From Steroidobacteraceae bacterium (GTDB lineage Bacteria; Pseudomonadota; Gammaproteobacteria; Steroidobacterales; Steroidobacteraceae), in assembly GCA_035577165.1 (NCBI GenBank), contig DATLVV010000109.1, forward strand, positions 1 through 26,640: 26,640 nucleotides of DNA. Direction: 5' to 3'. Positions 1,425 through 20,024 of the stretch are shown here, in pieces. Both the position numbers and the translations under genes were made by a program. Within the stretch, counting starts at the first letter, position 1. Each line of letters opens with the position of its first letter. Under the pieces are notes generated by a model that did not search any database, was not told the origin of the DNA, and saw only the letters and a program-made list of their open reading frames with translations.

Positions 1425-1703
1425 ATGATCGTTAAGGGATTTGGCGAGGTCGGACACAGGCTGCTGGTCGAAATGCCCTTCGTGCTGATGCGGTATGATT
1501 ACGACGGTGGCCGCCGCGCGGATGGGCTTTGCGGTGCCGCGCCGAGGCTGTACGTCCTGGTCGGCAGCGAGGAGCAGGACTGCGTTGAAGCCATCCCGAT
1601 CGCGTGGGCGGCTGCGCAAGCGCTCGCGCCTGAGACTATGGAACGCCTTGCGTTGCAGCTCAGAAGGCTCCGCGGCGCAGAACCTCCTCGCGGAGGCGAT
1701 TGA
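1425..1703 (+). CDS. Hypothetical protein (92 aa)
   Basis: ATG 1 nt after the previous TGA (in frame with track ORF 1392..1703); stop overlaps portal ATG (TGATG). Confidence 0.55.
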   Translation: MIVKGFGEVGHRLLVEMPFVLMRYDYDGGRRADGLCGAAPRLYVLVGSEEQDCVEAIPIAWAAAQALAPETMERLALQLRRLRGAEPPRGGD

Positions 1704-3385
1704 TGCGCCAGCGCGTCAGGGAAATCGTCGCGCTCGGGGACCAGCTTTTCAGCCGGCGCTACCCCGTCATGTCCCAGTGGCAGACGCAGGCTGAGAATTT
1801 TCACGTCATGCGCGCCGACTTCACCCGGCGCCGTTACTTCTCCGAGGAGTTCGGTTCGTACCTCATGAGCGGGCGGCCGGCGCGATGCTGCCGCGACCTC
1901 ATGAACTCGTTCTCGACCATGCTGCGCCGGGACCAGTGGTTTCACGCTAAGACGGACTCCGAAAAGGTCAACGAGGACCGTGACGCCAAGATATGGCTCG
2001 ATTGGGCATCGCAGACGATGCGCCGGGCGATGTATGACAAGCGCACCGGGTTCGTGCGCGCGGCCAAGATCACCGACGGTGATTTCTGCGCGTTCGGTAA
2101 TGCGGTCATCACCCGCGAGGTCGTCGACTACTCGCATTTTCTCTATCGCAACTGGCATTTGCGCGATGTGGCCTGGGAACAGGACGTGCGCGGTGTCATC
2201 GACTCGGTGCATTTCGACTGGAAGCCCTACGCCGGCCAACTCATGCAGAAGTTCGGCAAGAGCACGTCTGGCACCATCGATCCCCGTGTCCTCGACATGG
2301 CGAAGGACCCCAAGCAGAAGCTCTCCGAAATCCAGTGCCGGCGCTTCCTGTGCCGAGCCGACGAATACGACCTTCCGTCACAGGCGACCAAGGGCAAGTC
2401 CTACGTCTCAGTCTATGTCGACGTGCAGCATGAGACCATCCTCGAAGAGGTGGCACTGCGCACATGGCCGGTGACCATCCCGCGATGGGAGTTCGGCGGC
2501 TCGATGTTCGGGGACCAGTACGGCTATTCGCCGCCCGTGGTCTACGGCCTGCCGGATTCGCGCATGTACCAGCAGATGATGCTGTCCATGCTCACGGCAT
2601 CGGAGATGGCGACCTATCCGGCGATGATCGCGGTCGGCGAGGCGATCAACGGGGCGATCAACCTCTACGCTGCCGGCATCACGCAGACCGATGCGGATTA
2701 CGACGAGCGCACCGGGGAAGTGCTCCGTCCCATCACCACGCAGTTCGAAGGCATCCGCTGGGGCGCCGAGCAGATGGAGCGGCTGGAAGCAGCCTTGGAT
2801 GACTCCTTCCTGCTATCCAAGATCAGACTGCCTGAAATTCAAAAGGACATGACGGCCTACGAGGCATCGAAGCTTTACGAGCAATTCATCCGGGAATCGC
2901 TGCCGCTGTTCGAGCCGGTGAATGACGAATACAACATGCACCTGGTCGACGGCACGTTTCAGGATTGCCTCAATCTCGGCATGTTCGGCTCGGTCGATGA
3001 CATGCCGCAAGTTCTGCGGGGCAGGGATATCTCGTGGCAGTTCGACACGCCAATCACCCAGGCGGTCGAGGCGGGGCTGACGAAATCGTTCGAGGCCACC
3101 ATTCAGGCGGTCGTCCAGGGCGCCCAGGTCGATCCGACCGTGAGGATGAACGTCGACTGGAACACGGCCACGCGCGACGCGGTGACCGGTACGGGCGCGC
3201 GGGCGAAGTGGCTCTACCCCGAGGACCAAGTCAAGAAGATGCAGGACCAGGAGCGCGAGCGCCAAGCCGCGCAACAGGCCGCAGAGCAGATGGCCCAGCA
3301 CGCCGACATGGCGACGCGGGTCGGTAACGCAGCGGAATCCGCCGGCAAGGCCGCGGGGGCGCTGCAAGAGGCGGGGATGATGTGA
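1703..3385 (+). CDS. Portal protein / head-tail connector (T7 gp8 / Bbp21-like family)
   Basis: GGAGG at 1692-1696, ATG 1703; 560 aa; motifs DFCAFGNAVI, IPRWE...YGYSP, LSKIRLPE..KDMTAYE, and QQAAEQ-rich C-terminal barrel typical of podoviral connectors. Confidence 0.9.
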   Translation: MRQRVREIVALGDQLFSRRYPVMSQWQTQAENFHVMRADFTRRRYFSEEFGSYLMSGRPARCCRDLMNSFSTMLRRDQWFHAKTDSEKVNEDRDAKIWLDWASQTMRRAMYDKRTGFVRAAKITDGDFCAFGNAVITREVVDYSHFLYRNWHLRDVAWEQDVRGVIDSVHFDWKPYAGQLMQKFGKSTSGTIDPRVLDMAKDPKQKLSEIQCRRFLCRADEYDLPSQATKGKSYVSVYVDVQHETILEEVALRTWPVTIPRWEFGGSMFGDQYGYSPPVVYGLPDSRMYQQMMLSMLTASEMATYPAMIAVGEAINGAINLYAAGITQTDADYDERTGEVLRPITTQFEGIRWGAEQMERLEAALDDSFLLSKIRLPEIQKDMTAYEASKLYEQFIRESLPLFEPVNDEYNMHLVDGTFQDCLNLGMFGSVDDMPQVLRGRDISWQFDTPITQAVEAGLTKSFEATIQAVVQGAQVDPTVRMNVDWNTATRDAVTGTGARAKWLYPEDQVKKMQDQERERQAAQQAAEQMAQHADMATRVGNAAESAGKAAGALQEAGMM

Positions 3386-3678: not shown

Positions 3679-3758
3679 GGGACAATTCAACAATAGCCGC
3701 CGTTCTGCCCTCCCCACGGAATGGCTGTGCCGCGGCTTGCGTTAACTAGAGGTGATTG

Positions 3759-4781
3759 ATGGTTGATCCGACCCCGGCACCTGCGCCGGCTGCGACCCCT
3801 ATTGCTCCATCGTCGGCGCCGGCTCCCGCTCCGGCCCAACCAACCCCGGCACCTGCGCCGGCTTCGGCTCCGGCGCCGACGACCCTCGCAACACTCGATC
3901 CCGCTGCGCCGCCGCTGTCGAATGCGCCTCTTGCGCCGGCATCGTTCCCCGACAACTGGCGCGATCTGATCGCAGGCGAGGACAAGGGCTTCGCCGAACG
4001 GCTCAAGCGGTTTGCCTCGCCCAACGACCTCGCAAAGTCCTATCGCGAGATCGAAGGCAAGATGTCGTCTGGCGAACTGCGGGCTCCGCCCAAGCCGCTG
4101 CCAGCCAACGCGACCGACGAGCAGAAGGCGCAATGGAGGCAAGCGAACGGCCTGCCCGACAAGCCGGAGGGCTATGTCGAGAAACTGGCGCTCCCCAACG
4201 GGGTCGTGATCGGCGAGGCCGACAAGCCGCTGGTCGGCGACTTCGCCAAGCGCGCGATGGAAAAGGGCTGGTCGCAAACGGCCTTCAACGAGGCCGTTGG
4301 CTGGTTCTACGAGGCGCAGGCCGAAGTCGAGGGGCGGCGCGCCGAGAATGATGTCGTGGCCCGCACGCAGAACCAGACCTCGCTCATGAGCGAGTGGGGG
4401 CCGGGCGACTACAAGGTCAACATGAATGCCGTCGGCTCGCTGCTCGCCGGCATGCCGGAGGACTTCAAGGTGGCGCTGCTCACCGCCCGCACCGCGGACG
4501 GCCAGATGCTCGGCGACACAGTGGCATTCAACAAATGGGCGGCGGCACATGCGCGCGACTTCAATCCGGCGGCGACTGTTGTTGCTCCAACTGAACTCAA
4601 CGCACCGAAGGCCATCGCTGATGAAATGGCCGAGCTCGAAGCCTTGATGGGTCGCGCGCAGAAAGACCCGGAAGCCAAGCGCCAGTATTATGGCGACGAC
4701 GGCAAGCCTGGTCTCGATGCACGGTATCGGCTTCTTGTTGAGACACAGCAGAAGATGGCCGCGCGCGGACGCGCCGCGTGA
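3759..4781 (+). CDS. Capsid assembly scaffolding protein
   Basis: GAGGTG SD at 3749-3754; Pro/Ala-rich N-tail, then WRD...KRF.SP.DLAKSYRE.E, PDKPEGY and EWG..Y motifs; sits between portal and capsid. Confidence 0.85.
   Translation: MVDPTPAPAPAATPIAPSSAPAPAPAQPTPAPAPASAPAPTTLATLDPAAPPLSNAPLAPASFPDNWRDLIAGEDKGFAERLKRFASPNDLAKSYREIEGKMSSGELRAPPKPLPANATDEQKAQWRQANGLPDKPEGYVEKLALPNGVVIGEADKPLVGDFAKRAMEKGWSQTAFNEAVGWFYEAQAEVEGRRAENDVVARTQNQTSLMSEWGPGDYKVNMNAVGSLLAGMPEDFKVALLTARTADGQMLGDTVAFNKWAAAHARDFNPAATVVAPTELNAPKAIADEMAELEALMGRAQKDPEAKRQYYGDDGKPGLDARYRLLVETQQKMAARGRAA
3771..3863 (+). repeat. 21-nt direct repeat ACCCCGGCACCTGCGCCGGCT (3771-3791, 3843-3863) encoding TPAPAPA in the scaffold N-tail
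   Basis: Two exact copies read directly from the sequence. Confidence 0.85.
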
Positions 4782-5126: not shown

Positions 5127-5972
5127 GTGGCTGATACCGCTTTCCAGGTTCAATACCGGAAAGAGGCGATCATGGGCTTCGAATACGGCATGTCCGATCT
5201 GCGGACTGCCGTGACCACGGAAGCCGTCATCAAGGGCAACCAAGCAATCTTCCTTGTTGCGGATTCCGGCGGTGCCTCCGCCTCCAACCGTGGCGTCAAC
5301 GGCCTCATCCCGGCCCGCGCCGACGATCTCCAGCAGTACACGGCGACCCTGGTCGAATGGCACGACCTCGTCCGCCGCACCTCGTTCAACCTGTTCGCTT
5401 CGCAGGGCGACGGTCGTCGCATCATGCAGAAGACGACCAGGAACGTGATGAACCGCAAGGTCGACCTCGACATCATGTCGGCCCTGCAGACGGGAACGCA
5501 GTTCATCGGCACCTCGGCGGTGACGATGACCCTCGCTCTCGCCCTTCGCGCCAAAACCGTCCTCTCGTTGAATCAGGTTCCGATCAACGAGGCCGACAAC
5601 ATGTTCGCGGTCATCTCGCCAGCGGCCATGTCGTTCCTCGAACAGGTCAAGGAGTTCAACTCCGCGCCGTTCGTGGACGTGAAGCCGCTCAACGCTCCGG
5701 CCAACCGGTTCCGGCGCTGGGCCGGCTTCAACTGGATCGAGCATCCGCTCGTTCCCGGCGTCGGCACCTCCGCCGAGACGCTGTTCTTCTATCACCGCGA
5801 CGCCATCGGCCATGCGGTGAATACCGGCGAAATGCAGGCCCTCGCCGGCTATCACGAAGAGCAGGATTACTCCTGGGCTCGCACCACCTGTTTCATGGGC
5901 TCCGTCCTTCTGCAGAACCGCGGTGTGGTTCAGTGCAGGCACGATGGCTCCGCCTATGTGACCACGGCGTAA
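5127..5972 (+). CDS. Major capsid protein
   Basis: GGAG SD at 5116-5119, GTG start; 281 aa; F..QY...GFE..MS.LR..V, RKVD.DI..AL, F..W.GFNWI.HP, YHRDAIGHA, GS.LLQNRGVV motifs of the BPP-1/APSE-type podoviral capsid family; follows scaffold. Confidence 0.9.
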   Translation: MADTAFQVQYRKEAIMGFEYGMSDLRTAVTTEAVIKGNQAIFLVADSGGASASNRGVNGLIPARADDLQQYTATLVEWHDLVRRTSFNLFASQGDGRRIMQKTTRNVMNRKVDLDIMSALQTGTQFIGTSAVTMTLALALRAKTVLSLNQVPINEADNMFAVISPAAMSFLEQVKEFNSAPFVDVKPLNAPANRFRRWAGFNWIEHPLVPGVGTSAETLFFYHRDAIGHAVNTGEMQALAGYHEEQDYSWARTTCFMGSVLLQNRGVVQCRHDGSAYVTTA

Positions 5973-5985
5973 GGGGGGCGGACAC

Positions 5986-7434
5986 ATGGCTTACAATCCT
6001 GGTTATGTCGACGCCAACAAGATCGCCACCAACGCCAACTACGTCTCCGGCGCGGGCCTGTTCAAGGTCTTCGACACCGTCGAATCGGGCGTCACCTTCT
6101 GGGTCTATCTCACCAGCGATTCCCTCGCTGCGACCCAGGTGTCAGGTTACGTCACCGACGCGACGGCAAAGCGCCTCAAGGTCGGCGACATCGTGGACGT
6201 GTTCTCGGGCACGTTCGCATCGCAGGCCGCCACAGCCACCACGGGCCTCGCGCTCGGGGCGGTGACGTTCCCGGCGACCGTCGGTCTCTCCTCGCTGTTC
6301 ACGTCCCAGCCGCAATACCAGCGGATGATCGTGACGACGGTGACGGCCGGCACCACCACCACGTCCGGTGTCGGAACGTGGTCGGCGGCGGAACCTGCGG
6401 TGATCGGGCTCGGCAATCTGCCGCGCAACCTGATCGACTGCGGCGACTTCACCACGAATCCCTGGCAGTTGGGCACCTCGTTCAATGGCAGCTCCACCAC
6501 TCCGGCGCTGACGGCTGATCGGTTTGTCGCAAATGCCGGCGGTTCGCAGGTGTGGACCGCGGGACGTACCTCGAACACCACGATCGCGGGCTTCTCCGCC
6601 GCGTATGTGTGGGGCCGATCCGTCGGCGACACGCACACCGTCGGCCAGTCCTTCGGTCAGGTGATCGAAAGTGTGGACTCGGTGCGCGTGCAGGGCTTGC
6701 CCATCTCGCTGTCGTGGTATGTGGCTTCGGACGCAAACTTCGCAGCGGGCGCTTCGGGCGGCACCTACACCGCGACCATCGTGTCCGGGACGGGTCTGAA
6801 CGAGTCGAGCGGCAAGATGTTCTCGGGTGCGTGGTCCGGTATGACCACGATCGCCACCCAGGCCTACACGCCGACATCGACGATGGCCCGCATCGGGCCG
6901 CTCGGGGGCACGGTGCCCACGGGCGCGAGCCAGTTGGGCGTGATGTTCTCTTACGTCCCGACCACAGCGGCGACCTCTCCCGGCCTCACCGCCGGGGCGC
7001 ACGAGAGCCTGCAGTTCATGGGCATCCAACTCGAAGCCGGGGGCACCACCCCGTTCGAGCATACGGAGGTCGCCGAGGTGGTCAATATCGCCACCCGGTA
7101 TCTGCAGGTGATCAACGAGCCCACGTCCAGCGTCATGGTTGGCGTCGCCGGTTACAACGGCGCGACCTCCACCGCGCAGGTCCACATCCCGCTGGCATCG
7201 CCGATGCGGCAGGCCCCGACCGTGACGTTCACGCCCGGCGGCTTTGCCATCATCGACCTCGCCAACACCGCCCACACCATCTCGTCTGGTGGTCTGGTCG
7301 GTGCGACGACGGGAGCGGTGACGCTCAACGTCACGGCGGCCACCACGATGTCGTCCGGCAACAGCGGTGCGCCTGCGTTCCTGCAGGGACGCTCGACCAA
7401 CTCGGGCATCATCATTCTCAACGCCGACTACTGA
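5986..7434 (+). CDS. Capsid decoration protein fused to a fibre/carbohydrate-binding-like domain (putative head fibre), 482 aa
   Basis: N-terminal Y.TSD.....SGY.TDA...LKVGD.V.V decoration-type motif directly after the capsid gene; from about 6421 RNLI.CGDF..PWQ.GTSF...ADRF, QLE.G..TPFE and MR.APTV motifs seen in phage fibre domains; very Thr/Ser/Gly/Ala-rich. Confidence 0.7.
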   Translation: MAYNPGYVDANKIATNANYVSGAGLFKVFDTVESGVTFWVYLTSDSLAATQVSGYVTDATAKRLKVGDIVDVFSGTFASQAATATTGLALGAVTFPATVGLSSLFTSQPQYQRMIVTTVTAGTTTTSGVGTWSAAEPAVIGLGNLPRNLIDCGDFTTNPWQLGTSFNGSSTTPALTADRFVANAGGSQVWTAGRTSNTTIAGFSAAYVWGRSVGDTHTVGQSFGQVIESVDSVRVQGLPISLSWYVASDANFAAGASGGTYTATIVSGTGLNESSGKMFSGAWSGMTTIATQAYTPTSTMARIGPLGGTVPTGASQLGVMFSYVPTTAATSPGLTAGAHESLQFMGIQLEAGGTTPFEHTEVAEVVNIATRYLQVINEPTSSVMVGVAGYNGATSTAQVHIPLASPMRQAPTVTFTPGGFAIIDLANTAHTISSGGLVGATTGAVTLNVTAATTMSSGNSGAPAFLQGRSTNSGIIILNADY

Positions 7435-7442
7435 CGGCGTGG

Positions 7443-7472
7443 CCCTGGGGCATCCGTGCCCCAGGGTTTCTT
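7443..7472 (+). terminator. Rho-independent terminator after capsid/decoration genes (positional analogue of T7 Tphi)
   Basis: Perfect 10-bp stem CCCTGGGGCA-TCCG-TGCCCCAGGG followed by TTTCTT, 8 nt after the stop at 7434. Confidence 0.8.
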
Positions 7473-7486
7473 GGCTCAGGGGACAC

Positions 7487-9553
7487 ATGCAAATCGAAGT
7501 TTCGGACCAGGCGCGAAACGTCGCCTCGCTGCTCAACAATGTCGGGCTCGCTGCCGCGGGGGATGGTGGTGACGGGCTCGAAGCCGGGGTCGCCATGATA
7601 CGGCGCTCCATTGCCCTCAATCCCCTCGATCTCAATCTGCGCATGAACCTCGCGTCGTTGCTGATGCAGCGCGACGCGGACGATGAGGTCGAGGAAATCT
7701 GCCTGTTCACCCTCAAGCACAACGAGAACGCCGCAGGCGCGTGGTCGGTGCTCGGGGTGATCCACACCCATCGCGGTCAGATCGACGATGCCACGGCCTG
7801 CTTCAAGAAGGCGTGGGACATCGAGCCGACCGGTCAGCACACGTTCGACCTCGCCGCCGCCTACCTGCGTGCGGGGGATTTCGAGCGGGGCCTGCCGCTC
7901 TACGAGCATCGCCACCTGATCCTACCCAAAACGGGACCGACGCCGAATGCGCCGGTCTGGAAGGGCGAGAAGGTTGATCATCTCGCGGTCTACTCCGACC
8001 AGGGATATGGCGACGTGATGCTGTTCTCCCGGTTCCTGCCGTGGGCCAAGGAACAGTGCGGGAAGGTCACGCTCTACACCGACCCGGCCACGGTGCCGCT
8101 GCTCTATAACTTCCGCTCGATCATCGACGTGGAGTCGGTCTACTCGACGGAAACCAAGTTCGGCGCACAGATTGCGCTCGCAAGCATTCCGCTGGTCTAC
8201 GGACTGCGGATGCACAATATCCCTCCAGATTCCGGGCTGCTGAGCCCGTCCGCCACGGATGGGCGCCTCGTCAGCCCCGGTCTCAAGATCGGCATCGCCT
8301 GGCAGGGCAACCGTCGCTTTCCCGCCGACGTGGTGCGCTCGATCCCGTTCAAGGAATTCCTCCCCCTCGCGGCTGATCCCCGCAACACCATCTATAGCCT
8401 GCAGTGCGGCCACGATGCCGGAATCATCGCCAAGCTCCGGACTGGCCGCATCATCCGCGACATGACGCCCGACATCGAAGGCGAATGGTCGCACACCGCG
8501 GCGGTCATCAAGAATCTCGACCTCGTGGTGTGCTCGTGCACCGGCATCGCGCATCTCGCGGGTGCCTTGGGCGTGCCGTGCTTCGTCATGGTACCGCGGT
8601 TCGGTTATTGGCTCTGGTTCCATGGCCGCGACGACACGCCATGGTATCCGCACACGCAATTGTTCCGGCAGACCAAGGTCGGGCAATGGTCCGACGTGAT
8701 GACGCGGGTCCTCGCGGCAATCGAGATGATGCACAAGCGGCGCTCCTTGGTCGCGATGCTCAATCGCGGTTATGGGGCGTCATCTCCGGTCGTCCAGCAG
8801 TACGAGCCGGAAGTCGCAGCGGTGCTGCGCAAGGTGCTGCGCAAGGGGGATTGTTTCATCGACGTGGGCGCGGCGGCCGGCATTCATACGGTGGCGGCAT
8901 CCGATCTCGTGGGGGATGAAGGCCGCGTGATCGCATGCGAGCCCGGCGAGCAGAACTTGCCGAAACTGCGGCAGAACATCGGGGATAGGAAAAACGTGGA
9001 GATCGTCGAGGCGCCGCTCTCGAATGCCGCGGACGACGTGACGCTCTACATCAACTCGGACAACGAGAACAATTCGCTGTGGGACCCTGGGGAATTTCCG
9101 GGGCCGGCGAATATCAAGTCGCGGGAGAATCCACGGCCGGTGACGATGCGGGCGACGACGCTTGATGCGATCGCAGGCAATCGAGTTGTTCCAACCCGCC
9201 TCATCAAGATCGATACCGAGGGTGCGGAACAGACTATCCTTGAGGGTGCGGCCGACCTTCTGTCGCGCTCAGACAGGCCGCCCTACATCGTCGCCGAGCT
9301 TCACGAGTTTGGCCTCAACAAACTCGGGCACAGCCAAAAGTCCCTTCGGACATTCATGTCCGGGCACGGTTATAGCACCTATATCCTCAAGCCCGACGGC
9401 TCTCGCCCGGTGCTCGTCGATGAAAAGCAGGGCATCACGTTCGACCGCGACGGCTGCGTTCTCAACATGCTGTTCTCGACGCGCGAGGCGATCGATGAGG
9501 CGTGGGGTGTTGAGGCCGATGAGGTCGATCAATGGGCGGGGGTGGCGGCATGA
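7487..9553 (+). CDS. TPR + GT9-like (GT-B) glycosyltransferase + FkbM-family methyltransferase fusion, 688 aa
   Basis: AGGGGA SD, ATG 7487 (in frame with track ORF 7367). TPR helices at about 7570-7915; DQGYGD...F.RF, KIGIAWQG, AHLAGALG.P, TPWYP...LFRQ...W at about 7950-8735; FkbM motifs IDVGA..G, .EP, IKIDTEGAE..IL.GA at about 8790-9480. Confidence 0.88.
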   Translation: MQIEVSDQARNVASLLNNVGLAAAGDGGDGLEAGVAMIRRSIALNPLDLNLRMNLASLLMQRDADDEVEEICLFTLKHNENAAGAWSVLGVIHTHRGQIDDATACFKKAWDIEPTGQHTFDLAAAYLRAGDFERGLPLYEHRHLILPKTGPTPNAPVWKGEKVDHLAVYSDQGYGDVMLFSRFLPWAKEQCGKVTLYTDPATVPLLYNFRSIIDVESVYSTETKFGAQIALASIPLVYGLRMHNIPPDSGLLSPSATDGRLVSPGLKIGIAWQGNRRFPADVVRSIPFKEFLPLAADPRNTIYSLQCGHDAGIIAKLRTGRIIRDMTPDIEGEWSHTAAVIKNLDLVVCSCTGIAHLAGALGVPCFVMVPRFGYWLWFHGRDDTPWYPHTQLFRQTKVGQWSDVMTRVLAAIEMMHKRRSLVAMLNRGYGASSPVVQQYEPEVAAVLRKVLRKGDCFIDVGAAAGIHTVAASDLVGDEGRVIACEPGEQNLPKLRQNIGDRKNVEIVEAPLSNAADDVTLYINSDNENNSLWDPGEFPGPANIKSRENPRPVTMRATTLDAIAGNRVVPTRLIKIDTEGAEQTILEGAADLLSRSDRPPYIVAELHEFGLNKLGHSQKSLRTFMSGHGYSTYILKPDGSRPVLVDEKQGITFDRDGCVLNMLFSTREAIDEAWGVEADEVDQWAGVAA

Positions 9554-10596
9554 AGATCGCCCTCGGCTGGCAAGTCTCTTCGTATTTCGGATGGGGGGTC
9601 TACGGCCTCAACATCGCCCTCGAATGGGCGAACGACCCCACAATCGAAGCCTCGGGGTGCATCGGCAAACTCGATGACATCGTGGTCGACAACCTTCGGC
9701 GCCGCGTTCTGGTGCCGTTCATGCGTCGTAGTTTGCAACCGGTCGCCCGCGCCGCAATCGCCATCGACGCGCTCGGCAACGAATGCGGGGGCAGTCGCGA
9801 CACCAAGGCCCTTCATGCGGCGATCTTCTTCGAGTTGCCGCTGTCGTCCACGGCGATCGAGCGCGCGAAGCGGTATGAGACCATCATCGCCGGTTCGACG
9901 TGGAACGCCAATGTGCTGCGTAGTCACGGGCTCACCAACGTCGAGACCATCTTCCAGGGCGTCGACCGCTCGCTGTTCCACTGGGCACCCAAGCGTGACC
10001 TCTACCCCGGCAAGTTTTTGATCTTCTCCGGCGGCAAAGCGGAGCCTCGCAAGGGGCAGGACCTCGTCGTCAAGGCGTTCCGCATCTTCGCCGAGAAGCA
10101 CAAGGACGCCATGCTGGTGACGGCATGGCATTCGCCCTGGCCGCAACTCGCCAAGGGTATGGACCTCGACCTCTCGAAATTCGCCGACCGCGTCATCGAC
10201 GTGGGCGCTGTGCCGAACGGCCAGATGGCGCCGATCTATCGCGAGTGCGACGTGGCGCTATTCCCGAACCGAGCCGAAGGCGGGACGAACCTCGTCGCGA
10301 TGGAATGCATCGCCTGCGGTGTGCCGACCATCGTGTCGAGCAACACCGGCCACCTCGACCTGCTCGATGTGCCGGGCGTGATGGGTTTGCAGATCGGCCG
10401 GCCCCCGCTCGGAGAATGGTCGGAATGGGGCGAATGCGACGTGGACGAGATTGTCCACGAACTGGAGACGGCATACCGCAATCACGGCGGCGTCCGAGTG
10501 ACGGACCCGATGGGGCCGCGTTTCCATTGGTCGACGGCTGCACGGCAGATCGCTGACCTCGTCAGGAATCATCAACCACAGAAGGAAGTCGCGTAA
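9550..10596 (+). CDS. GT4-family (Glycos_transf_1) glycosyltransferase, 348 aa
   Basis: ATGA overlap with upstream stop; GK.E.RKGQDL...AF and DV..FPNRAEGGTNLVAMECIACG.P motifs of retaining GT-B enzymes. Confidence 0.88.
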   Translation: MKIALGWQVSSYFGWGVYGLNIALEWANDPTIEASGCIGKLDDIVVDNLRRRVLVPFMRRSLQPVARAAIAIDALGNECGGSRDTKALHAAIFFELPLSSTAIERAKRYETIIAGSTWNANVLRSHGLTNVETIFQGVDRSLFHWAPKRDLYPGKFLIFSGGKAEPRKGQDLVVKAFRIFAEKHKDAMLVTAWHSPWPQLAKGMDLDLSKFADRVIDVGAVPNGQMAPIYRECDVALFPNRAEGGTNLVAMECIACGVPTIVSSNTGHLDLLDVPGVMGLQIGRPPLGEWSEWGECDVDEIVHELETAYRNHGGVRVTDPMGPRFHWSTAARQIADLVRNHQPQKEVA

Positions 10597-12609: not shown

Positions 12610-12822
12610 ATGGCCGGCAAGGTATCGAAGGCGGATGTCGATTATGGTCCCGGCCAGCCGCATTGCGGCATGTGCGACCACTTCATCGACAATGACGAAG
12701 GTGAGGGCGATGACGAGGCCGGCACCTGCGAGATCGTGATGGGCAAGATTCGCGAGGATGCGTGGTGCAAACTCTATAAGTCGCGCCGCCAGCCGACCCT
12801 TGCTGAAGGGCCATACGAATGA
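12610..12822 (+). CDS. HiPIP-like (high-potential iron-sulfur protein fold) small protein without signal peptide
   Basis: GGAGGG SD; K..V.Y...C19xxC22..F...C40..V.G.I....W52C53..Y56 matches the small-HiPIP pattern; ATGA overlap into the tail A gene. Confidence 0.7.
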   Translation: MAGKVSKADVDYGPGQPHCGMCDHFIDNDEGEGDDEAGTCEIVMGKIREDAWCKLYKSRRQPTLAEGPYE

Positions 12823-13466
12823 CCGACAAACTTACGCTGTACCGCGGCGCGCTCTCCTATCTCCAGGAGCGCACCATCGCGTCGCTCTCGGAAGCGCGCG
12901 AACCGGTGCGCGTCCTGAACGATATCTACGACCAGGAAGTCGCCTATTGCCTGGAGCGCGAGTTCTGGAATTTCACCTACCGTGCAATTCAACTGGACGC
13001 GGACAGCAACTTCACGCCGTCGTTCGGCTACAACTTCGCGTTCCTCATCCCGACCGATTGGATTCGCACGCGGCGCATATCGGCGACACCGGAGATGCTG
13101 GAGCCGATCACCCGCATTTCCGAGGAGGCGGGATATTGGTTCTGTGATCTCACCCCGCTTTATATCCAGTACAACTCGAATGATCCCCAATACGGGATGA
13201 ATCTCGGCAAGTGGCCGCCGACGTTCGCCGACTATGTCGAGGTCAGGCTGGCCCGGCGCGCGGCGGGGCGCATCACCAGCAAGGCCGAACTGCTGACCGG
13301 CCCCGATAGCCTCATCAAGCAGGAATACAACGCAAGGCGCGTTGCCGCCGCGAACTGCGCCATGAACGAGGCGGTGGCGTTTGCCCCGATGTGCTCGTGG
13401 GCGAAGTCGCGCCGCTACCCCGGCCCGAACGCCGACAACCCGACCGGCCCGACGCTCATCCCGTAA
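12819..13466 (+). CDS. Tail tubular protein A / head-tail adaptor (T7 gp11-like)
   Basis: 215 aa; N-terminal AL..L.ER.I.SL.E...R.L..IY, WNF, Y.F.IP.DWIR, WP.TF..YV..RLA motifs; directly precedes the nozzle. Confidence 0.85.
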   Translation: MTDKLTLYRGALSYLQERTIASLSEAREPVRVLNDIYDQEVAYCLEREFWNFTYRAIQLDADSNFTPSFGYNFAFLIPTDWIRTRRISATPEMLEPITRISEEAGYWFCDLTPLYIQYNSNDPQYGMNLGKWPPTFADYVEVRLARRAAGRITSKAELLTGPDSLIKQEYNARRVAAANCAMNEAVAFAPMCSWAKSRRYPGPNADNPTGPTLIP

Positions 13467-16400
13467 ATGGCCCGCGTCAACGCACCACTTCTCGCGTTCA
13501 ATCGGGGCGAGGTCTCAAAGACCGCGCTTGCGAGGCTCGACCTCGCCAAGTTGCAACTCGCCGCCGAGAGCCAGGTCAACTGGCTGCCCACGGTGATGGG
13601 CGGCATGATGCTGCGGCCCGGCCTCAACAACGTGGGCGAGGTTGCCGGCGATAGTGCGTGTCAACTGATCGATTTCGTTTACGCCAAGGATGACACCGCG
13701 CTGCTCGAATTGACCGCAGGCTCGATGCGGGTGTGGATCAACGATGTGCTACTGTCGCGCGTCGCGGTGTCGACGGCGGTGCTCGATCCCAACATGTCCG
13801 GCTCTGGCGGCCACTGGGACACGAGCGACACCACGGCCGGATGCACGGCGACCGTGACCGGCGGTGTTGCGACACTTACCGCGTCCGCGCGTGGCGGCAT
13901 CGCCCGTATCAAACAGACGCTATCGATTGCGGGCGGCGACCAGAACAAGGAGCACGGGCTGCGGGTGGTGGTGACCAACGGCCCCGTCACCATCCGTGTG
14001 GGGTCGTCCGACGGCCTGCAGGACTATATGACCTCGGCGGAGATCGACACCGGGACTCATTCCCTGGTGTTCACCCCGTCCGGGGCGAATGCTTATCTGC
14101 AGATCGAGTCGACCGACACCTGGAACAAATATCTGACCTCGGTTTCGATCGAGGCGGCGGGCGTCGTGAGCGTGCCGACCCCGTGGAATGCCCCGGTTCT
14201 GTCGACGCTGCGCTGGCACCAGTCGAACGACATCGTTTATGTCGCGCAATATGGCGGCCAGCAGTACAAGATCGAGCGCCGCGGCACCCGGCCCGGCGCG
14301 CGGGGCTGGTCGGTCGTCATCTACAAGTCGAACACCGGCCCCTTCCTCAATCTGCCGACGGTGGCAAACCTGATACTCACGCCCTCGGTCTACGAGGGCA
14401 ACGGCACACTCACGGCCTCGCGGCCGTTCTTCCAGTCCGGCCATGCCGGCGCGCTGTTCCGCTTGTTCACGGCGGGCCAGGCGAACAAGACGGTGCTCGG
14501 TGCGCTCGGCGCTTTTACCGACCCGGTGAGGATTTCCGGTGTCGGCAGTGTTCGCAAGCTGTTTTGGACCGTGGCAGGGACGTATTCCGGAACGCTCACC
14601 CTGCAGCAATCCTTCGTGGGTCCGACCTCGGGCTTTGCCCCAATCCAGACTACGACAGGCACCGGATCCACGGCCTATGACGACACGGGTGGTCCGCTCA
14701 ACAATAACGTGGTTTGCTGGCTGCGGGTCGGCTTCGTCAACTCCGGCGATTATGTGAGTGGATCGGCGACGGTGAGTTTCACCGACGGAACCGGTTCCGT
14801 CGTCGGATCGACAACGGCGGGGGCGTGCGCTGCCGGGGGTCAATACGGCATCTGTCGGGTCACGGGTTATACATCGCCCACATCCGTCACCATCGAGGTG
14901 CTGTCCTACGGCGCCCTCAACGGGGGCGGGGCATTTTCCACGCTTGCCGGGACCACAAACTGGCAGGAAAGCGCGTGGTCTGGGGTGCAGGGCTGGCCCT
15001 CCGCCGTGGCTTTCATCGAGGGCCGGCTCGGTTGGTTCTCGGCGCAGAACTTTCCGATCGCCCTCTCACAGTCGAACAATTATACCGGGTTTGCCTCGGA
15101 TGATATGTACGGGGCTTCGCTCGGCGATTCCGCGGTGATCCTTGCCAGCTTCGGGGACGGCCCGGCCGATCGCGTCAACTGGGCCGTCGCGCTGCAGCGC
15201 CTTCTTCTCGGCCGTGAGCAGTCCGTCGCTTCGGTGCGCTCGTCGTCGTTCGATACCCCGTTGACCCCGACCGACTTCGCCGTCAAGGATTGCTCGGCGC
15301 AGGGCGCCTCCAGGCTGCGCGCCATCAAGGTCGGCAAGCGTGCGATCTTCATCGAGACGGCCGGCGCCAAGGTCTACGAACTCGCCTTTGCGCCACAAGA
15401 GGCAGACTATGGCGATGCCGATCTGACCCGGCTCAACCTCGACATCGGCGCGACCGGCTTTACCGATATCGCCTACGCCAAGCAACCCGACGGCATGGTC
15501 TATCTCGCCCGCGGCGACGGATTGTGCGCGGCGCTGCTCTACGATCCGAACGACGAGGTGGTGGGGTGGTGGCGGTTGATGACGCTCGGCGTCATCGAGA
15601 ACGTGCGGACCCTGCCGAACTGGCAGAGCGGGAACGACACCTTCGTCTATTTTGTGGTCAACCGGACCATCAACGGGACGGCGCGGCGCTTCATCGAAAA
15701 ACTGGCGCAACGCGGCAACTGCATAGGCGGACTGCTCAATCAGCAACTCGACGCGGCCTATGTCTATTCCGGGTCACCCGTGTCCTCGATCACGATTTCC
15801 TGGTTGCCGAGCACGACTGTTTCGGTATGGGCGGACGGTGCGTTCATCGGAACGGGAACGACGAACGGCTCGGGTGTGCTTTCTGCCCTTCCCGACGGGC
15901 TGTCGCATTCGAAGATCGTTGCCGGCCTTGCCGGGGCGACCTTCTCCTATTCCGGTGCAGCGACGGGCACCATCACCGGGCTCTCGGCGTATAACGGAAT
16001 TCCTGGGGAATTCTTTGCGGACCAGCAGCCGTCGGGGCGGATGATCCATATCGGACCCCTGACGCCATCAGGCGGCTCGGTGACGCTTCCGAATGGCATC
16101 ACTAGCGCCAATGTGGTGGCGTTCTTCGGATACCAGGCGCCGTACATGTCGGCGAAGCTCGCCTATGGGGCTCAGTTGGGCTCGGCGCTGGCGCAGAAAA
16201 AGAAAATCCAGCACGTCGGCCTTGCGATGTTCGACACCCACGCCACGGGATTGCAGACAGGTCAGCGGTTCGATCACCTCGACGCCCTGCCGCAATACGA
16301 AGACAACGCTGCAGTGTCGGCCTCCGGCATCTGGTCGGAATACGACCAGCCGATGATCGAGGTCGCAGGGGAGTGGGACACCGATGCGCGGCTGTGCCTG

Positions 16401-16469
16401 TTGGCGCAGGCGCCGTTTCCTTGCAAGGTGGGCGGGGTGGTCGTTGCTATGGAGACACGGGAGAAGTAG
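13467..16469 (+). CDS. Tail tubular protein B / nozzle (T7 gp12-like), 1000 aa
   Basis: N-terminal FNRGEVS...R.DL...N..P...GG...RPG, GWPS.V.F.EGRL, KQPDG.VYL.R.DG, VGWWR, FIEKL motifs. Confidence 0.88.
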   Translation: MARVNAPLLAFNRGEVSKTALARLDLAKLQLAAESQVNWLPTVMGGMMLRPGLNNVGEVAGDSACQLIDFVYAKDDTALLELTAGSMRVWINDVLLSRVAVSTAVLDPNMSGSGGHWDTSDTTAGCTATVTGGVATLTASARGGIARIKQTLSIAGGDQNKEHGLRVVVTNGPVTIRVGSSDGLQDYMTSAEIDTGTHSLVFTPSGANAYLQIESTDTWNKYLTSVSIEAAGVVSVPTPWNAPVLSTLRWHQSNDIVYVAQYGGQQYKIERRGTRPGARGWSVVIYKSNTGPFLNLPTVANLILTPSVYEGNGTLTASRPFFQSGHAGALFRLFTAGQANKTVLGALGAFTDPVRISGVGSVRKLFWTVAGTYSGTLTLQQSFVGPTSGFAPIQTTTGTGSTAYDDTGGPLNNNVVCWLRVGFVNSGDYVSGSATVSFTDGTGSVVGSTTAGACAAGGQYGICRVTGYTSPTSVTIEVLSYGALNGGGAFSTLAGTTNWQESAWSGVQGWPSAVAFIEGRLGWFSAQNFPIALSQSNNYTGFASDDMYGASLGDSAVILASFGDGPADRVNWAVALQRLLLGREQSVASVRSSSFDTPLTPTDFAVKDCSAQGASRLRAIKVGKRAIFIETAGAKVYELAFAPQEADYGDADLTRLNLDIGATGFTDIAYAKQPDGMVYLARGDGLCAALLYDPNDEVVGWWRLMTLGVIENVRTLPNWQSGNDTFVYFVVNRTINGTARRFIEKLAQRGNCIGGLLNQQLDAAYVYSGSPVSSITISWLPSTTVSVWADGAFIGTGTTNGSGVLSALPDGLSHSKIVAGLAGATFSYSGAATGTITGLSAYNGIPGEFFADQQPSGRMIHIGPLTPSGGSVTLPNGITSANVVAFFGYQAPYMSAKLAYGAQLGSALAQKKKIQHVGLAMFDTHATGLQTGQRFDHLDALPQYEDNAAVSASGIWSEYDQPMIEVAGEWDTDARLCLLAQAPFPCKVGGVVVAMETREK

Positions 16470-16471
16470 GC

Positions 16472-16861
16472 GTGCGCGTCACGTTCCGGCCGACTATCCC
16501 CGCTGACATCCCCTTCCTCACCAATCGCCCACTCCCCTCCCGCATCCAGGCCATCACCGCAGAGATCGAGGGCCGCATCATCGGCCTGGGCGGCTTCGCC
16601 TTCCAGCCCGACGGCACGGTGATCGCGTTCGCGGAAATCTCCGACGAGGCCCGCAAGTACCCCGTCGCCATTCACCGGGCGGGCCTGATGGCGATGGACC
16701 TCATCGCCAGGTCGCGGCGGCAGTTCGTGGTGGCGGAAGCCCAGCCGGGAAACCCCGCGGCGGAGCGCTGGCTGTTACGACTGGGGTTCACGCCGACCGA
16801 GATCATGGGGCGCAAAGCCTACGTCTGGGAGCGCGCCGAGCATGTTGCACAACCGGTATAA
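16472..16861 (+). CDS. GNAT-fold protein at the T7 gp13 (internal virion protein A) position, 129 aa
   Basis: GTG 2 nt after the nozzle stop (in frame with track ORF 16373); GNPAAERWLLRLGF matches the GNAT N..A...L..LGF motif. Confidence 0.7.
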   Translation: MRVTFRPTIPADIPFLTNRPLPSRIQAITAEIEGRIIGLGGFAFQPDGTVIAFAEISDEARKYPVAIHRAGLMAMDLIARSRRQFVVAEAQPGNPAAERWLLRLGFTPTEIMGRKAYVWERAEHVAQPV

Positions 16862-17402
16862 CGCAGGCTTGTGGGAGCGGGCGGTGTTTGACCCGGCCAC
16901 GATGCTTGCGGTCGGCACGGGCAGTACCATCGCGGGCGGCGGGCTGTCCGCCTTGGCGACGCTTGCGGGCGGTGGAAGCGCCAAACAGGCAGGCCTCCTC
17001 CAGCAGCAGGCCGAAGAGTTCAAGGCGAAGCAGGCCGAACAGAACGCGGGCCTTGCGATAGCCTCGTCTCAGGTCAAGATGGCCGACACGCAACTGCGGA
17101 CATCGCAGGCGATCTCGACCTCGACGGCGCGGGCGGCGGCATCGGGGGTCGATGCGGGGACGGGCTCTGCCGCGACGAATGTCGGGGAACTGGCGAAGCG
17201 CGGCACCTATTTGGCATCCCTTGATCTCTATAACGGCGAATCCCAGGCAACCGGTCTTCTCAACGAGGCGAAGGGCTTTCGGTATTCCGGGGAGATCGCG
17301 AGAATGGAGGGCGAGGAAAAGGAAAAAGCCTCTGAGCTCCAGGCTCTCGCCACGCTTGCTGGCTCGGCCGGTAGTGCCTTCAAGATGTACGGGAAGGTGT
17401 AA
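16842..17402 (+). CDS. Small internal virion/ejection protein (T7 gp14-like); start may be GTG 16884
   Basis: Gly/Ala-rich hydrophobic N-terminus (TIAGGGLSALATLAGG), Q/A-rich helix, AAASGVD.GTGSA motif typical of this family. Confidence 0.75.
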   Translation: MLHNRYNAGLWERAVFDPATMLAVGTGSTIAGGGLSALATLAGGGSAKQAGLLQQQAEEFKAKQAEQNAGLAIASSQVKMADTQLRTSQAISTSTARAAASGVDAGTGSAATNVGELAKRGTYLASLDLYNGESQATGLLNEAKGFRYSGEIARMEGEEKEKASELQALATLAGSAGSAFKMYGKV

Positions 17403-20021
17403 GTGGCCAAACTTCCCGGCATCATGGACCTCGGCGGTGCGTCGGTCGTCTCGGGCCGCGCGACCGGCAGCGTCGATGTCTCCGGCTACGCCCGCGGGGC
17501 GGAAGCGCTGGCTGGCGCGGGCCGGGCTTTCGGTGCCGCGGTCGCCAAGGTCGGCGGCGATCTTGAGGATGTGGCGAAGAAGCAAGAAGAGACACAATAC
17601 CTCACGGCCACGGCAGGCCGCGACATCGAACTTGCAAACCTTCACACCGAGTTAGCCAAGTCGAAGGACTTCGCGAACCTCGACGATACCTACCAAGCCC
17701 GCTCCAAGGAGATCATCGACAAGTACGCTGCGACCGTGCCGGACGGAAGGCTGCGGGCGCATTACGAGGCGACATCCGGGGTGATGCAGGCGCACGGCGC
17801 CTCGTCAATCTCGACGCAGGCATTCCATGGTCTGACACAGGCCGACGCTGATCACCGCAAGGCGACGCTGTTCGATATCCAGAAGGACATCGGGGACAAT
17901 CCCGACAATCCGTTCCGCGCCGCGGCAATTGACGGCTACAATCTCAAGGTCGATGCCGCGGTGCGTAACGGCTACATGACCCCGGAGCAGGGGGCGCTTG
18001 AAAAGCGCCACGCCGCCGTTGCCCTGCAGACCACGGAAGCGCAGACCGACGCGGTGCGGCAGCCGCTCAAATTCCTGCGCGAGACCGGCGGCTTGCCGCG
18101 GGGCACCGAGGCGCTGCCGGGCTACTGGAACAAGGACGTTGCGAAGCGTGCGGCCGGGGTCGATTCCGACCTCATGGCAGTGGTCAAGCGCGCCTCTGAA
18201 ATCTCCGGGACGCAGTTTGTCATCGGGGACAAGGGTGGGGTGCGGGACCAGGGGACGCAGGACCAGCTTGTTGCCGCGGGCAGGTCACAGACCCGCAACT
18301 CCAATCACCTCACTGGCAGGGCGATCGACCTCATCCCGATCGTCAATGGAAAGCCAAATCCGGAAGCCTCACCCGACCAGTACCAGGAAATCTCCCGCGC
18401 CATGAAGCAGGCGTCCACGGAATTGGGCGTCAACGTCGGCTGGGGTGGGGACTGGAAGTCGTTCAAGGACGACGCGCATTTCGAACTGCCGAGGGATCAC
18501 GCGGCGGGACCGAACAAGTTCGGCCTCATCGATCCAAACACGATGCTGCGGCTGCAGAACCACGCACAAACGATTTTGCGCCAGCGCTCGACCGACGAGA
18601 TGCGGATTGCGGCGCAAAACCAGACGGCCGCGGCGCAAGGCTATGAGCGCTCCATCATCGATGGCGAAGCCGGCGTTGCCGCGCTTCCGCAGCGCAAGCA
18701 GATCGAGGACGATCCCACCCTCGACGAAGGTCACCGCAACACACTGTTGAAGCGGCTCGATGCGGCCTCCCGGCAAGATGACGCCTACAACGAGACCCTT
18801 GCCAAGTTCATGAGGCCGGACGGCGGGTTCTTCAACCCGTTCGACACCGACGAGCGCAAGCAGGTCGACAAGATTTACCGCAACCTCGGTGGCGACCAGA
18901 AGGCGCTCGAAACGGTCATCGACCGCACCGGGATTGTCCCAGCCACAGCGGCGGCGGGGATGCGTGGCGCACTAGTGTCGAACAATGCGCCGGCCGTCAT
19001 AGCCACAGCCCAGACCGCCCGCAACCTGATGGCCCGCAACCCGCAAATCTTCGCGGGGACCACGGGACAGAGCGACATCGAAAGCGCGGCCATCTCCTAT
19101 GGCCAGTACACCGAACACTTCGGGATGACCCCGGAGCAGGCGGCACAGAAGATCATCGAAGGCAATTCCCCCGAGTACAAGGCGAAGGTGGCCGCCCGCA
19201 TCAAAAACGAGGACGTGGGCGAGATCATCAAGAAGCAACTCGACCCCGCTGATTTGCAGAAGGCCTTCAACGAAGGGTGGACCCGGTTCGGTCGTCCCAA
19301 TATCGAGTTCACGGAGGGTGCCAAGGCTGCGGCATACAGCGATTACGCCGAGTTGTTCAAATCGAAGTACATGGAATCCGGCAACGTCGATACCGCCAAG
19401 GCCCAGGCGATCGAGCAGATGAAGAAAATCTGGGGCGTGTCCCATCTCAATGGGACAGGCTCCGGCACGCTGATGCGCTATCCCCCGGAGCGGGCGCCAG
19501 CCTATGCGGGAATACCCGACGTGGTGGGACGGATCGCCGACGAGGCGATTGCTGCCATCAAAGCGGAAGCCGGGCCTTCCGGACCGCAACTCGAAAAGGG
19601 TGCGCCGGAAGGTGTGGCGATCACCCGCGACAAGATCATCCTCACGCCGACTCCGCGCGGCGAAACCGCGCAAGCCTACATGGCCGGCGAGCCGGTGCCC
19701 TACATCCTGTCGTGGTTCGACAAGGACGGCCATTTGCAGATGCTCAACCCCGGCAAGGCCTTCGTGTTCGATGGCCAGAAGGCGCGGGAGAAGATCACCG
19801 AGGAACGCCGTGTGGGGCTGGAAAATGCAGTTAAGAGCACGGGTGAAATGGTTACTGCGTTGGGTGGACAGGGTGACACGCCGGTCATCGGTACGCCGTC
19901 CAAGGTTGAGCCAAGGACGGCGGCGCCCGTTCTAGCGGCCAAGCCAGACATTCCCGCCGCGCCTACGGACACTTTTGTCCTGCCCGGCAACCGCCGCCCC
20001 GGCCTTCCGACGTTGAAATAA
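17403..20021 (+). CDS. Internal virion/ejection protein (gp15-position) with embedded M15-family (L-Ala-D-Glu type) peptidase domain, 872 aa
   Basis: Helical Ala-rich body; at about 18120-18490 R...Q..L...GRS.T.NS.HLTGRAIDL and WGGDW.SFKD.AHFEL give the H/D/H zinc-ligand pattern of M15C peptidases. Confidence 0.82.
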   Translation: MAKLPGIMDLGGASVVSGRATGSVDVSGYARGAEALAGAGRAFGAAVAKVGGDLEDVAKKQEETQYLTATAGRDIELANLHTELAKSKDFANLDDTYQARSKEIIDKYAATVPDGRLRAHYEATSGVMQAHGASSISTQAFHGLTQADADHRKATLFDIQKDIGDNPDNPFRAAAIDGYNLKVDAAVRNGYMTPEQGALEKRHAAVALQTTEAQTDAVRQPLKFLRETGGLPRGTEALPGYWNKDVAKRAAGVDSDLMAVVKRASEISGTQFVIGDKGGVRDQGTQDQLVAAGRSQTRNSNHLTGRAIDLIPIVNGKPNPEASPDQYQEISRAMKQASTELGVNVGWGGDWKSFKDDAHFELPRDHAAGPNKFGLIDPNTMLRLQNHAQTILRQRSTDEMRIAAQNQTAAAQGYERSIIDGEAGVAALPQRKQIEDDPTLDEGHRNTLLKRLDAASRQDDAYNETLAKFMRPDGGFFNPFDTDERKQVDKIYRNLGGDQKALETVIDRTGIVPATAAAGMRGALVSNNAPAVIATAQTARNLMARNPQIFAGTTGQSDIESAAISYGQYTEHFGMTPEQAAQKIIEGNSPEYKAKVAARIKNEDVGEIIKKQLDPADLQKAFNEGWTRFGRPNIEFTEGAKAAAYSDYAELFKSKYMESGNVDTAKAQAIEQMKKIWGVSHLNGTGSGTLMRYPPERAPAYAGIPDVVGRIADEAIAAIKAEAGPSGPQLEKGAPEGVAITRDKIILTPTPRGETAQAYMAGEPVPYILSWFDKDGHLQMLNPGKAFVFDGQKAREKITEERRVGLENAVKSTGEMVTALGGQGDTPVIGTPSKVEPRTAAPVLAAKPDIPAAPTDTFVLPGNRRPGLPTLK

Positions 20022-20024
20022 CCA

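Follow-up and report, generated by a model that had tools for sequence, protein, structure and literature searches.

A TPR-glycosyltransferase-methyltransferase gene beside the head fibre gene of a T7-like podovirus: a candidate system for glycosylation of the phage's own fibre

The 26,640-bp contig DATLVV010000109.1 (C109), one of the 630 contigs of a 3.6-Mb metagenome-assembled genome (MAG) of a Steroidobacteraceae bacterium, was analysed over its entire length and is called the window here. By its genes, it is the late half, that is the late module, of an uncultured T7-like podovirus. Two enzyme genes are positioned inside its structural operon, with the capsid and fibre genes on one side and the tail tubular genes on the other, as a preliminary description made from the DNA letters had proposed. 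The first, gene A, encodes a single chain with an N-terminal tetratricopeptide repeat (TPR) domain, a glycosyltransferase domain resembling family GT9 and an FkbM-type methyltransferase; the second encodes a glycosyltransferase of family GT4. Our preferred interpretation, to which we give an even chance, is that this cassette carries out cytoplasmic O-glycosylation and sugar methylation of the phage's own head fibre. What is new at this locus appears to be the fusion of three predicted activities in one chain, together with a specific acceptor candidate that is supported by phylogeny. The genes concerned are as follows.

5127-5972, + strand: major capsid protein (PF19821, E 1.7e-22; phrog_3437, E 3.7e-55)
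5986-7434, + strand: putative head fibre or capsid decoration protein, 482 aa
7441-7474, + strand: terminator-like hairpin with U-run (found by folding)
7487-9553, + strand: gene A, 688 aa, TPR + GT9-like + FkbM (Pfam, NCBIfam, structure model)
9550-10596, + strand: GT4 glycosyltransferase (PF13692, PF00534, PF20706, phrog_2170)

Around 35 full-length homologues of gene A were found, 44-84% identical to it and alike in all three domains. In every contig with visible context the order is capsid, fibre homologue, A, and in none of these contigs did an A-family gene lie apart from a fibre homologue. At least nine distinct contigs repeat this order, so the arrangement is more than chance. Furthermore, for 19 of the approximately 35 homologues the longest contig is equal in size to that of a fibre homologue. 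The capsid protein of the window is 79-88% identical to those of its T7-like relatives, where GT4 is found at 51-67% identity; it is usually the next gene after A, with one case (L003) in which a gene for a generic SDR epimerase/dehydratase lies in between. The relatives were recovered by alignment-based scans of viral contigs; the same scan with a single protein found nothing, and a metagenome scan with an alignment of the whole enzyme returned mostly unrelated FkbM domains and one partial member of the family.

The fibre family comprises 68 proteins, and a maximum likelihood tree was built from the fibre C-terminus. In this tree a single clade with a long stem (100/97) holds all nine A-linked rows plus one row that is cut, and the 51 rows without A all lie outside it. 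Within this clade nests the fibre C-terminus of a phage of another kind (L002/L072), a 44-kb podovirus with an SU10-type capsid (PF17236) and SU10-type portal and adaptor genes. The protein encoded after its capsid gene has its own short N-terminus, and over its C-terminal 340 residues it shares 66% identity with residues 141-482 of the window fibre; it is followed by an A homologue that is 52% identical overall to that of the window, and GT4 is absent. The SU10-like kin of this phage are near to it in the capsid (73-74% identity) but distant in the fibre (just 42%), and they lack A. This distribution, with a fibre nested in the T7-like clade, points to acquisition of the fibre C-terminus and A together by the SU10-like phage, and places the break at the boundary between fibre domains. 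The co-occurrence of the cassette with the fibre across genomes, which the preliminary description had put forward as a check, is thus seen, in the form of a single clade of linked fibres and of a joint move of fibre C-terminus and enzyme into an unrelated capsid lineage.

The same comparison bears on which virion protein would be the target. The portal, adaptor and tail genes and the capsid Pfam family of L002/L072 differ from those of the A-bearing T7-like phages, so that the fibre C-terminus is the sole part of a structural protein common to both A-bearing lineages. If a virion protein is modified at all, the fibre is thus a better candidate than the capsid. The preliminary description had named the head fibre or the capsid: the first of these gains from the co-transfer across capsid lineages, and the second is disfavoured by the unrelated SU10-like capsid. 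That another virion protein, the major capsid or a tail protein, is glycosylated instead of the fibre has some appeal, as the capsid gene is only one gene upstream of A, and in mycobacteriophages glycans are reported on capsid and tail-tube subunits (Freeman et al. 2023, as summarised in PMC12619734). Given the different capsid, portal, adaptor and tail genes of the A-bearing SU10-like phage, we consider this distinctly improbable.

It could also be argued that a permissive site has taken up the cassette as a mobile accessory element, that the cassette hitch-hikes with the fibre and that its function has nothing to do with the virion. Other inserts do occur at the equivalent site between the fibre and tail tubular A genes: different inserts of 4 to 4.7 kb are present there in two T7-like phages whose fibres are more distant (L013:11438-15961 and L038:11345-15272), each with a class I S-adenosylmethionine (SAM) methyltransferase and several proteins without a Pfam match, and these may be alternative modification cassettes. 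In addition, GT4 and A differ in their identity ranking among the relatives, so the region is mosaic. However, hitch-hiking leaves the domain-precise co-transfer unexplained: the recombination into the SU10-like phage swapped the fibre C-terminus at a domain boundary and retained the terminator and A, and an A-family gene was never seen apart from a fibre homologue. We therefore hold hitch-hiking to be quite unlikely.

Two further loci resemble that of the window less closely. In a divergent T7-like phage (L055:6244-8633) a long-branch fibre is followed by a 416-aa GT9-like protein, in which no TPR or methyltransferase was detected, and by GT4; this may be a second, independent association of a fibre with glycosyltransferases. 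More distant or split relatives of A in other phages also lie within virion modules. An example is an unrelated 43-kb viral contig (L092:6676-12610) where a GT4-like gene, a TPR-glycosyltransferase gene and a separate FkbM-like gene come after the genes for two structural proteins with Ig domains; this is a split version of the enzyme set of the window, next to a surface protein of a different kind. A 236-aa class I methyltransferase is encoded on the minus strand inside the structural module of the SU10-like phage (L002:5466-6176).

Turning to the enzyme itself, the preliminary description had begun the element at 7443, a position that falls in the hairpin; gene A starts at the ATG at 7487, preceded 6 nt upstream by AGGGGA. 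A structure model was made with AlphaFold from 34 homologues (mean predicted local distance difference test score, pLDDT, 89.6). The domains of the protein are as follows.

aa 7-139 (nt 7505-7903): TPR domain
aa 152-421 (nt 7940-8749): GT9-like GT-B domain
aa 402-430: long linker helix
aa 441-673 (nt 8807-9505): FkbM methyltransferase domain

The TPR repeats were recognised by Pfam and NCBIfam within the first 145 residues. When the whole chain was compared with known structures by Foldseek, the top matches were SPINDLY, OGT and XcOGT (8dtf, 7y4i, 5npr, 2jlb; E 1e-11 to 1e-10), with TM-scores of only about 0.2. These GT41 enzymes are solved protein O-glycosyltransferases, and their layout of a TPR followed by a GT-B domain is common to gene A, which supports a protein acceptor for the phage enzyme. 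The likeness is one of overall layout; PF13844, the catalytic domain of GT41, has no match in gene A at E 0.01, and for that domain of gene A the GT9 structures give the better alignment. Taken alone, the GT-B domain is matched best by WaaF (1psw, Z 16.3), 3tov (Z 16.3), TibC (4rap, Z 16.1) and WaaC (2h1f, Z 15.1), and on GT9 structures 235-244 residues could be aligned at a root-mean-square deviation of 3.1-3.9 Å. TibC is a protein heptosyltransferase, so the GT9 fold is able to glycosylate proteins. From the model, then, the catalytic glycosyltransferase domain appears closest to GT9 and not to GT41.

The relationship to GT9 is a distant one at the level of sequence. Glyco_transf_9 (PF01075) scores 17.2 bits on gene A, below its cut-off of 22 and over 28 residues only, and a profile of the domain finds WaaC at E 0.047. 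In the GT9 signature D-T/S-G-x-x-H-L, Thr352 and His356 are kept and the sugar-binding Asp is replaced by Cys351; this Cys is the consensus of the phage family, whereas cellular relatives retain Asp there. GT9 enzymes also differ from gene A in having neither a TPR nor a methyltransferase domain. The methyltransferase is recognised with much less ambiguity: PF05050 matches aa 457-630 at E 1.9e-17 and 64.4 bits (cut-off 22.7), covering all but the last of the 173 profile positions (1-172), TIGR01444 is matched at 81.5 bits (cut-off 37.7), and the fold matches SAM-dependent methyltransferases at Z 14-15. D176, which lies within a G-x-G-D motif, presumably at the position of the catalytic Asp of GT9 enzymes, H356 and the SAM motif D459-V460-G461-A462...G465 are invariant in the 34 full-length homologues, and on this conservation both catalytic domains look functional.

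The GT4 gene most likely starts at the ATG at 9550 (348 aa), overlapping the stop codon of gene A as ATGA, which suggests that it is translationally coupled to gene A; an alternative start 18 nt upstream, at 9532, would give 354 aa. The family assignment comes from PF13692 (E 1e-13, 52.2 bits, cut-off 27) and PF00534 (E 7e-13, 48.9 bits, cut-off 26.4), with further matches to PF20706 (E 6.9e-9) and phrog_2170 (E 4.2e-22); among known structures there are weak sequence matches to PimA and to sucrose-phosphate synthase-like enzymes. Pfam, NCBIfam and the structural matches thus agree with the order of TPR, GT9-like and FkbM domains, then GT4, that had been read from the translations before. The earlier statement that the two proteins have no signal peptide or membrane segment also holds: none was found in either, and the highest 19-residue Kyte-Doolittle mean in the hydropathy check, 1.74, lies within the Rossmann core.

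The proposed acceptor is encoded directly 3' of the capsid gene, which opens the highly expressed capsid-fibre unit. It contains 14.3% Thr and 9.8% Ser (Ser+Thr 24%). In its structure model (pLDDT 83.5) a lineage-specific N-terminal part (aa 1 to about 140) is followed by a CBM4-like jelly roll (147-352) and a C-terminal beta-sandwich (about 360-482). The jelly roll matches CBM4-2 at Z 15.0 and also the distal domains of CBA120 tailspike 4 (Z 14.2) and the Kp7 tail fibre (Z 13.7). The location behind the capsid gene, the terminator that follows and the CBM4-like fold of the model fit a capsid-borne fibre or decoration protein with a tip of glycan-binding type. Residues specific to the A-linked clade are S212, D215, H217 and G220, all in one loop, an inserted G255, and E340, T380, S395, H430, A452 and T471. 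It is possible that these are acceptor or recognition features, or that they form a metal or ligand site.

The gap that separates the fibre stop codon from gene A is 52 nt long, which leaves no room for a promoter of the enzyme genes' own. The gap holds a hairpin with a 12-pair stem (7441-7452/7457-7468) and the loop UCCG, followed by UUUCUU, with a folding energy of -28.6 to -30.2 kcal/mol; it was found by folding and was not listed by a simple consensus terminator scan. A hairpin with a U-run is present between fibre and A in 7/7 loci, namely the window and six relatives including the SU10-like phage, and the stem sequences differ among the seven. This is the pattern of an intrinsic (rho-independent) terminator-like element that is conserved in position, and the terminator that the preliminary description had placed after the fibre gene can be kept. 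In T7 the T-phi terminator occupies the equivalent place, after gene 10. RNA sequencing runs were searched for the window so that read-through of the hairpin could be judged, and none of those searched contains it.

From these observations a course of events can be proposed. Late in infection the capsid and fibre genes would be heavily transcribed, and partial read-through of the hairpin 3' of the fibre gene would mean that less is made of gene A and of the GT4 coupled to it. The C-terminal module of the fibre, made up of the CBM4-like jelly roll and the beta-sandwich, would be gripped by the TPR arm of A, and the GT9-like GT-B domain would move a first sugar from a nucleotide sugar to Ser/Thr of this module. 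The fused FkbM domain would then O-methylate the sugar on the fibre, GT4, where present, would attach a second sugar, and the modified fibre would be mounted on the capsid. What we infer here is that the TPR arm binds the fibre and that the glycan is linked to protein, together with the sequence of the steps, the donor sugar, the sites and the purpose. A complex prediction for A(1-440) with fibre(100-482), run with alignments made for it, scored 0.00, a result neither for nor against binding.

Several points weigh against fibre glycosylation. Most fibres of the wider family have no cassette: 51/61 viral-contig loci with an informative downstream flank carry the fibre without A, and the fibre therefore does not need it. 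In most of the T7-like loci of this kind the tail tubular A gene comes directly after the fibre. Counted in independent events, the association of fibre and A amounts to one gain and one co-transfer. D215, H217 and H430 are among the clade-specific residues and might belong to a metal or ligand site instead of an acceptor site, and the Ser+Thr content of A-linked fibres is barely above that of the others (22.6% against 20.1%). This difference is too small, and Ser/Thr enrichment of A-linked fibres was dropped as evidence. Finally, the cellular relatives of the glycosyltransferase domain are uncharacterised, and their neighbours give no further functional clue.

The main rival to fibre glycosylation is that the enzymes modify a glycan or protein of the host surface, for receptor masking, superinfection exclusion or lysogenic conversion, and travel with the fibre because its CBM-like domain recognises that glycan. 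The CBM4-like, glycan-binding fold of the fibre middle domain, which occurs at the tips of phage tailspikes and tail fibres as well, would be well explained in this way; FkbM-type and GT4 enzymes are common in polysaccharide synthesis, and there is a weak RfbT match. Lysogenic conversion is conceivable, as two close T7-like relatives, L005 (47.3 kb) and L008 (50.4 kb), are classed as proviruses by IMG/VR, from which it follows that the T7-like phage group of the window may be temperate. However, the enzymes have no membrane segment, no flippase or Gtr-type partner was found, and to our knowledge a TPR arm is no feature of known lipopolysaccharide heptosyltransferases. Furthermore, the genes lie behind a terminator in a late operon where a promoter of their own would not fit, and late expression would leave little time for surface remodelling. 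On balance we regard modification of the host surface as unlikely.

Modification of the phage DNA was also considered, since phage GT-B enzymes that act on hydroxymethylated bases are well known (10.1101/2023.12.21.572611) and the enzymes might glycosylate and methylate such bases. A thymidylate-synthase-like hydroxymethylase was not found in four related near-complete genomes; nor was TET/JBP, although this second negative is weak as the TET model matched no control genome either. The TPR arm and the position in the late structural operon do not fit DNA modification, and the glycosyltransferase domain is like GT9 and unlike the DNA glucosyltransferases. It is scarcely credible that DNA is the substrate.

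Hundreds of cellular proteins from Alphaproteobacteria, Planctomycetes, Acidobacteria and other groups are related to the glycosyltransferase domain of gene A (30-38% identity), and in nearly all of them this domain is joined to a long array of TPRs. In the AlphaFold DB clusters the relatives are all nameless, and no match there is labelled FlmG. Among the 50 neighbours at 25 cellular loci TPR paralogues predominate; a few genes for GT41 enzymes, methyltransferases and sulfotransferases also occur, and neither flagellin nor pilin is present. On a 241.7-kb contig (JGI 3300047160) a cellular TPR-GT9-FkbM protein, P0083, stands in a row of three TPR proteins, and downstream of this row are cytidylyltransferase-like, HAD phosphatase and PfkB kinase genes, a set whose resemblance to nucleotide-heptose activation suggests such a pathway. 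On this ground ADP-heptose may be the donor for the phage enzyme; on the other side, no GmhA above cut-off was found in the MAG, and Cys replaces the Asp of WaaC in the phage family.

The remaining credible genes of the window, all on the + strand, are as follows.

1700-3385, + strand: portal protein (PF12236)
3756-4781, + strand: scaffold-like gene
12819-13466, + strand: tail tubular A
13467-16469, + strand: tail tubular B
16842-24923, + strand: internal virion proteins
from 25114, + strand: fibre gene, downstream of the internal virion proteins

Several small open reading frames (ORFs) lie between the enzyme genes and tail tubular A. One of 70 aa, at 12610-12822, is immediately 5' of tail tubular A, and in a related 68-kb contig the ORF in the equivalent position (67 aa) has a weak match to PF01355 (HiPIP). 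A further open frame, of 302 aa (5357-6265), is shifted by -1 against the capsid gene and extends beyond the capsid stop codon to reach into the fibre gene. Neither Pfam nor PHROG gave a match for it; it resembles the frameshift product of T7 gene 10B, but it may be a chance ORF of a high-GC genome. The full-length window sequence was found in one sequencing run only, the soil-metagenome DNA that is its source. A DNA search of a phage collection with the window gave no match, and a protein search gave weak partial matches only, among them one annotated as TibC and some from Synechococcus phages.

Of the characterised systems, FlmG is the nearest in design. This flagellin O-glycosyltransferase of Caulobacter crescentus and Brevundimonas binds its protein acceptor through the TPR domain and not through the GT-B domain, which selects the donor (PMC7591256; 10.1101/2022.03.25.485807). 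Like gene A it is a soluble cytoplasmic enzyme with an N-terminal TPR followed by GT-B, and the division of labour that we propose is the same; the two were compared by domain layout. Gene A differs in being phage-encoded, in its fused FkbM methyltransferase and GT4 partner, and in its presumed acceptor, a head fibre rather than flagellin; furthermore, there are no pseudaminic or legionaminic acid genes near it.

For virion glycosylation the precedent is in mycobacteriophages, where phage-encoded glycosyltransferases are reported to glycosylate the virion, with glycans carried on capsid and tail-tube C-termini (Freeman et al. 2023, Cell Host Microbe, as summarised in PMC12582341 and PMC12619734). 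Glycosyltransferase genes are associated with structural genes in both cases. The mycobacteriophages are actinobacterial siphoviruses, in contrast to the high-GC soil podovirus of the window, and no TPR-GT9-FkbM fusion occurs there as far as the system is described in these two summaries. Our literature search found virion glycosylation of tailed phages demonstrated only in mycobacteriophages; it found no paper on virion glycosylation in podoviruses of the kind seen here, nor on a TPR-GT9-FkbM fusion.

Fibre glycosylation by the cassette can be extended to a broader proposal, which we offer tentatively and hold at somewhat less than even chance. The fibre C-terminus, the terminator and the TPR-GT9-FkbM enzyme may together be a portable "self-glycosylating adhesin" module that is exchanged between unrelated capsid lineages, and a methylated sugar on the CBM-like receptor-binding domain may tune the adhesion of the particle or hide it from lectins and proteases of the host or the environment. 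Under this proposal no earlier case of virion glycosylation in phages other than actinobacteriophages would have both its enzyme and its acceptor defined.

Gene A would be a natural example of a predicted TPR-directed protein glycosyltransferase fused to a sugar methyltransferase. The locus names a small, testable pair: one soluble enzyme, which suffices in the SU10-like phage, and a fibre module of about 340 residues. Should podoviruses of soil and freshwater glycosylate and methylate a capsid-borne fibre, sugar coats on virions would be a general trait of phages, and this would bear on adsorption, on particle stability, on the immune recognition of therapeutic phages and on how structural modules in metagenomes are read.

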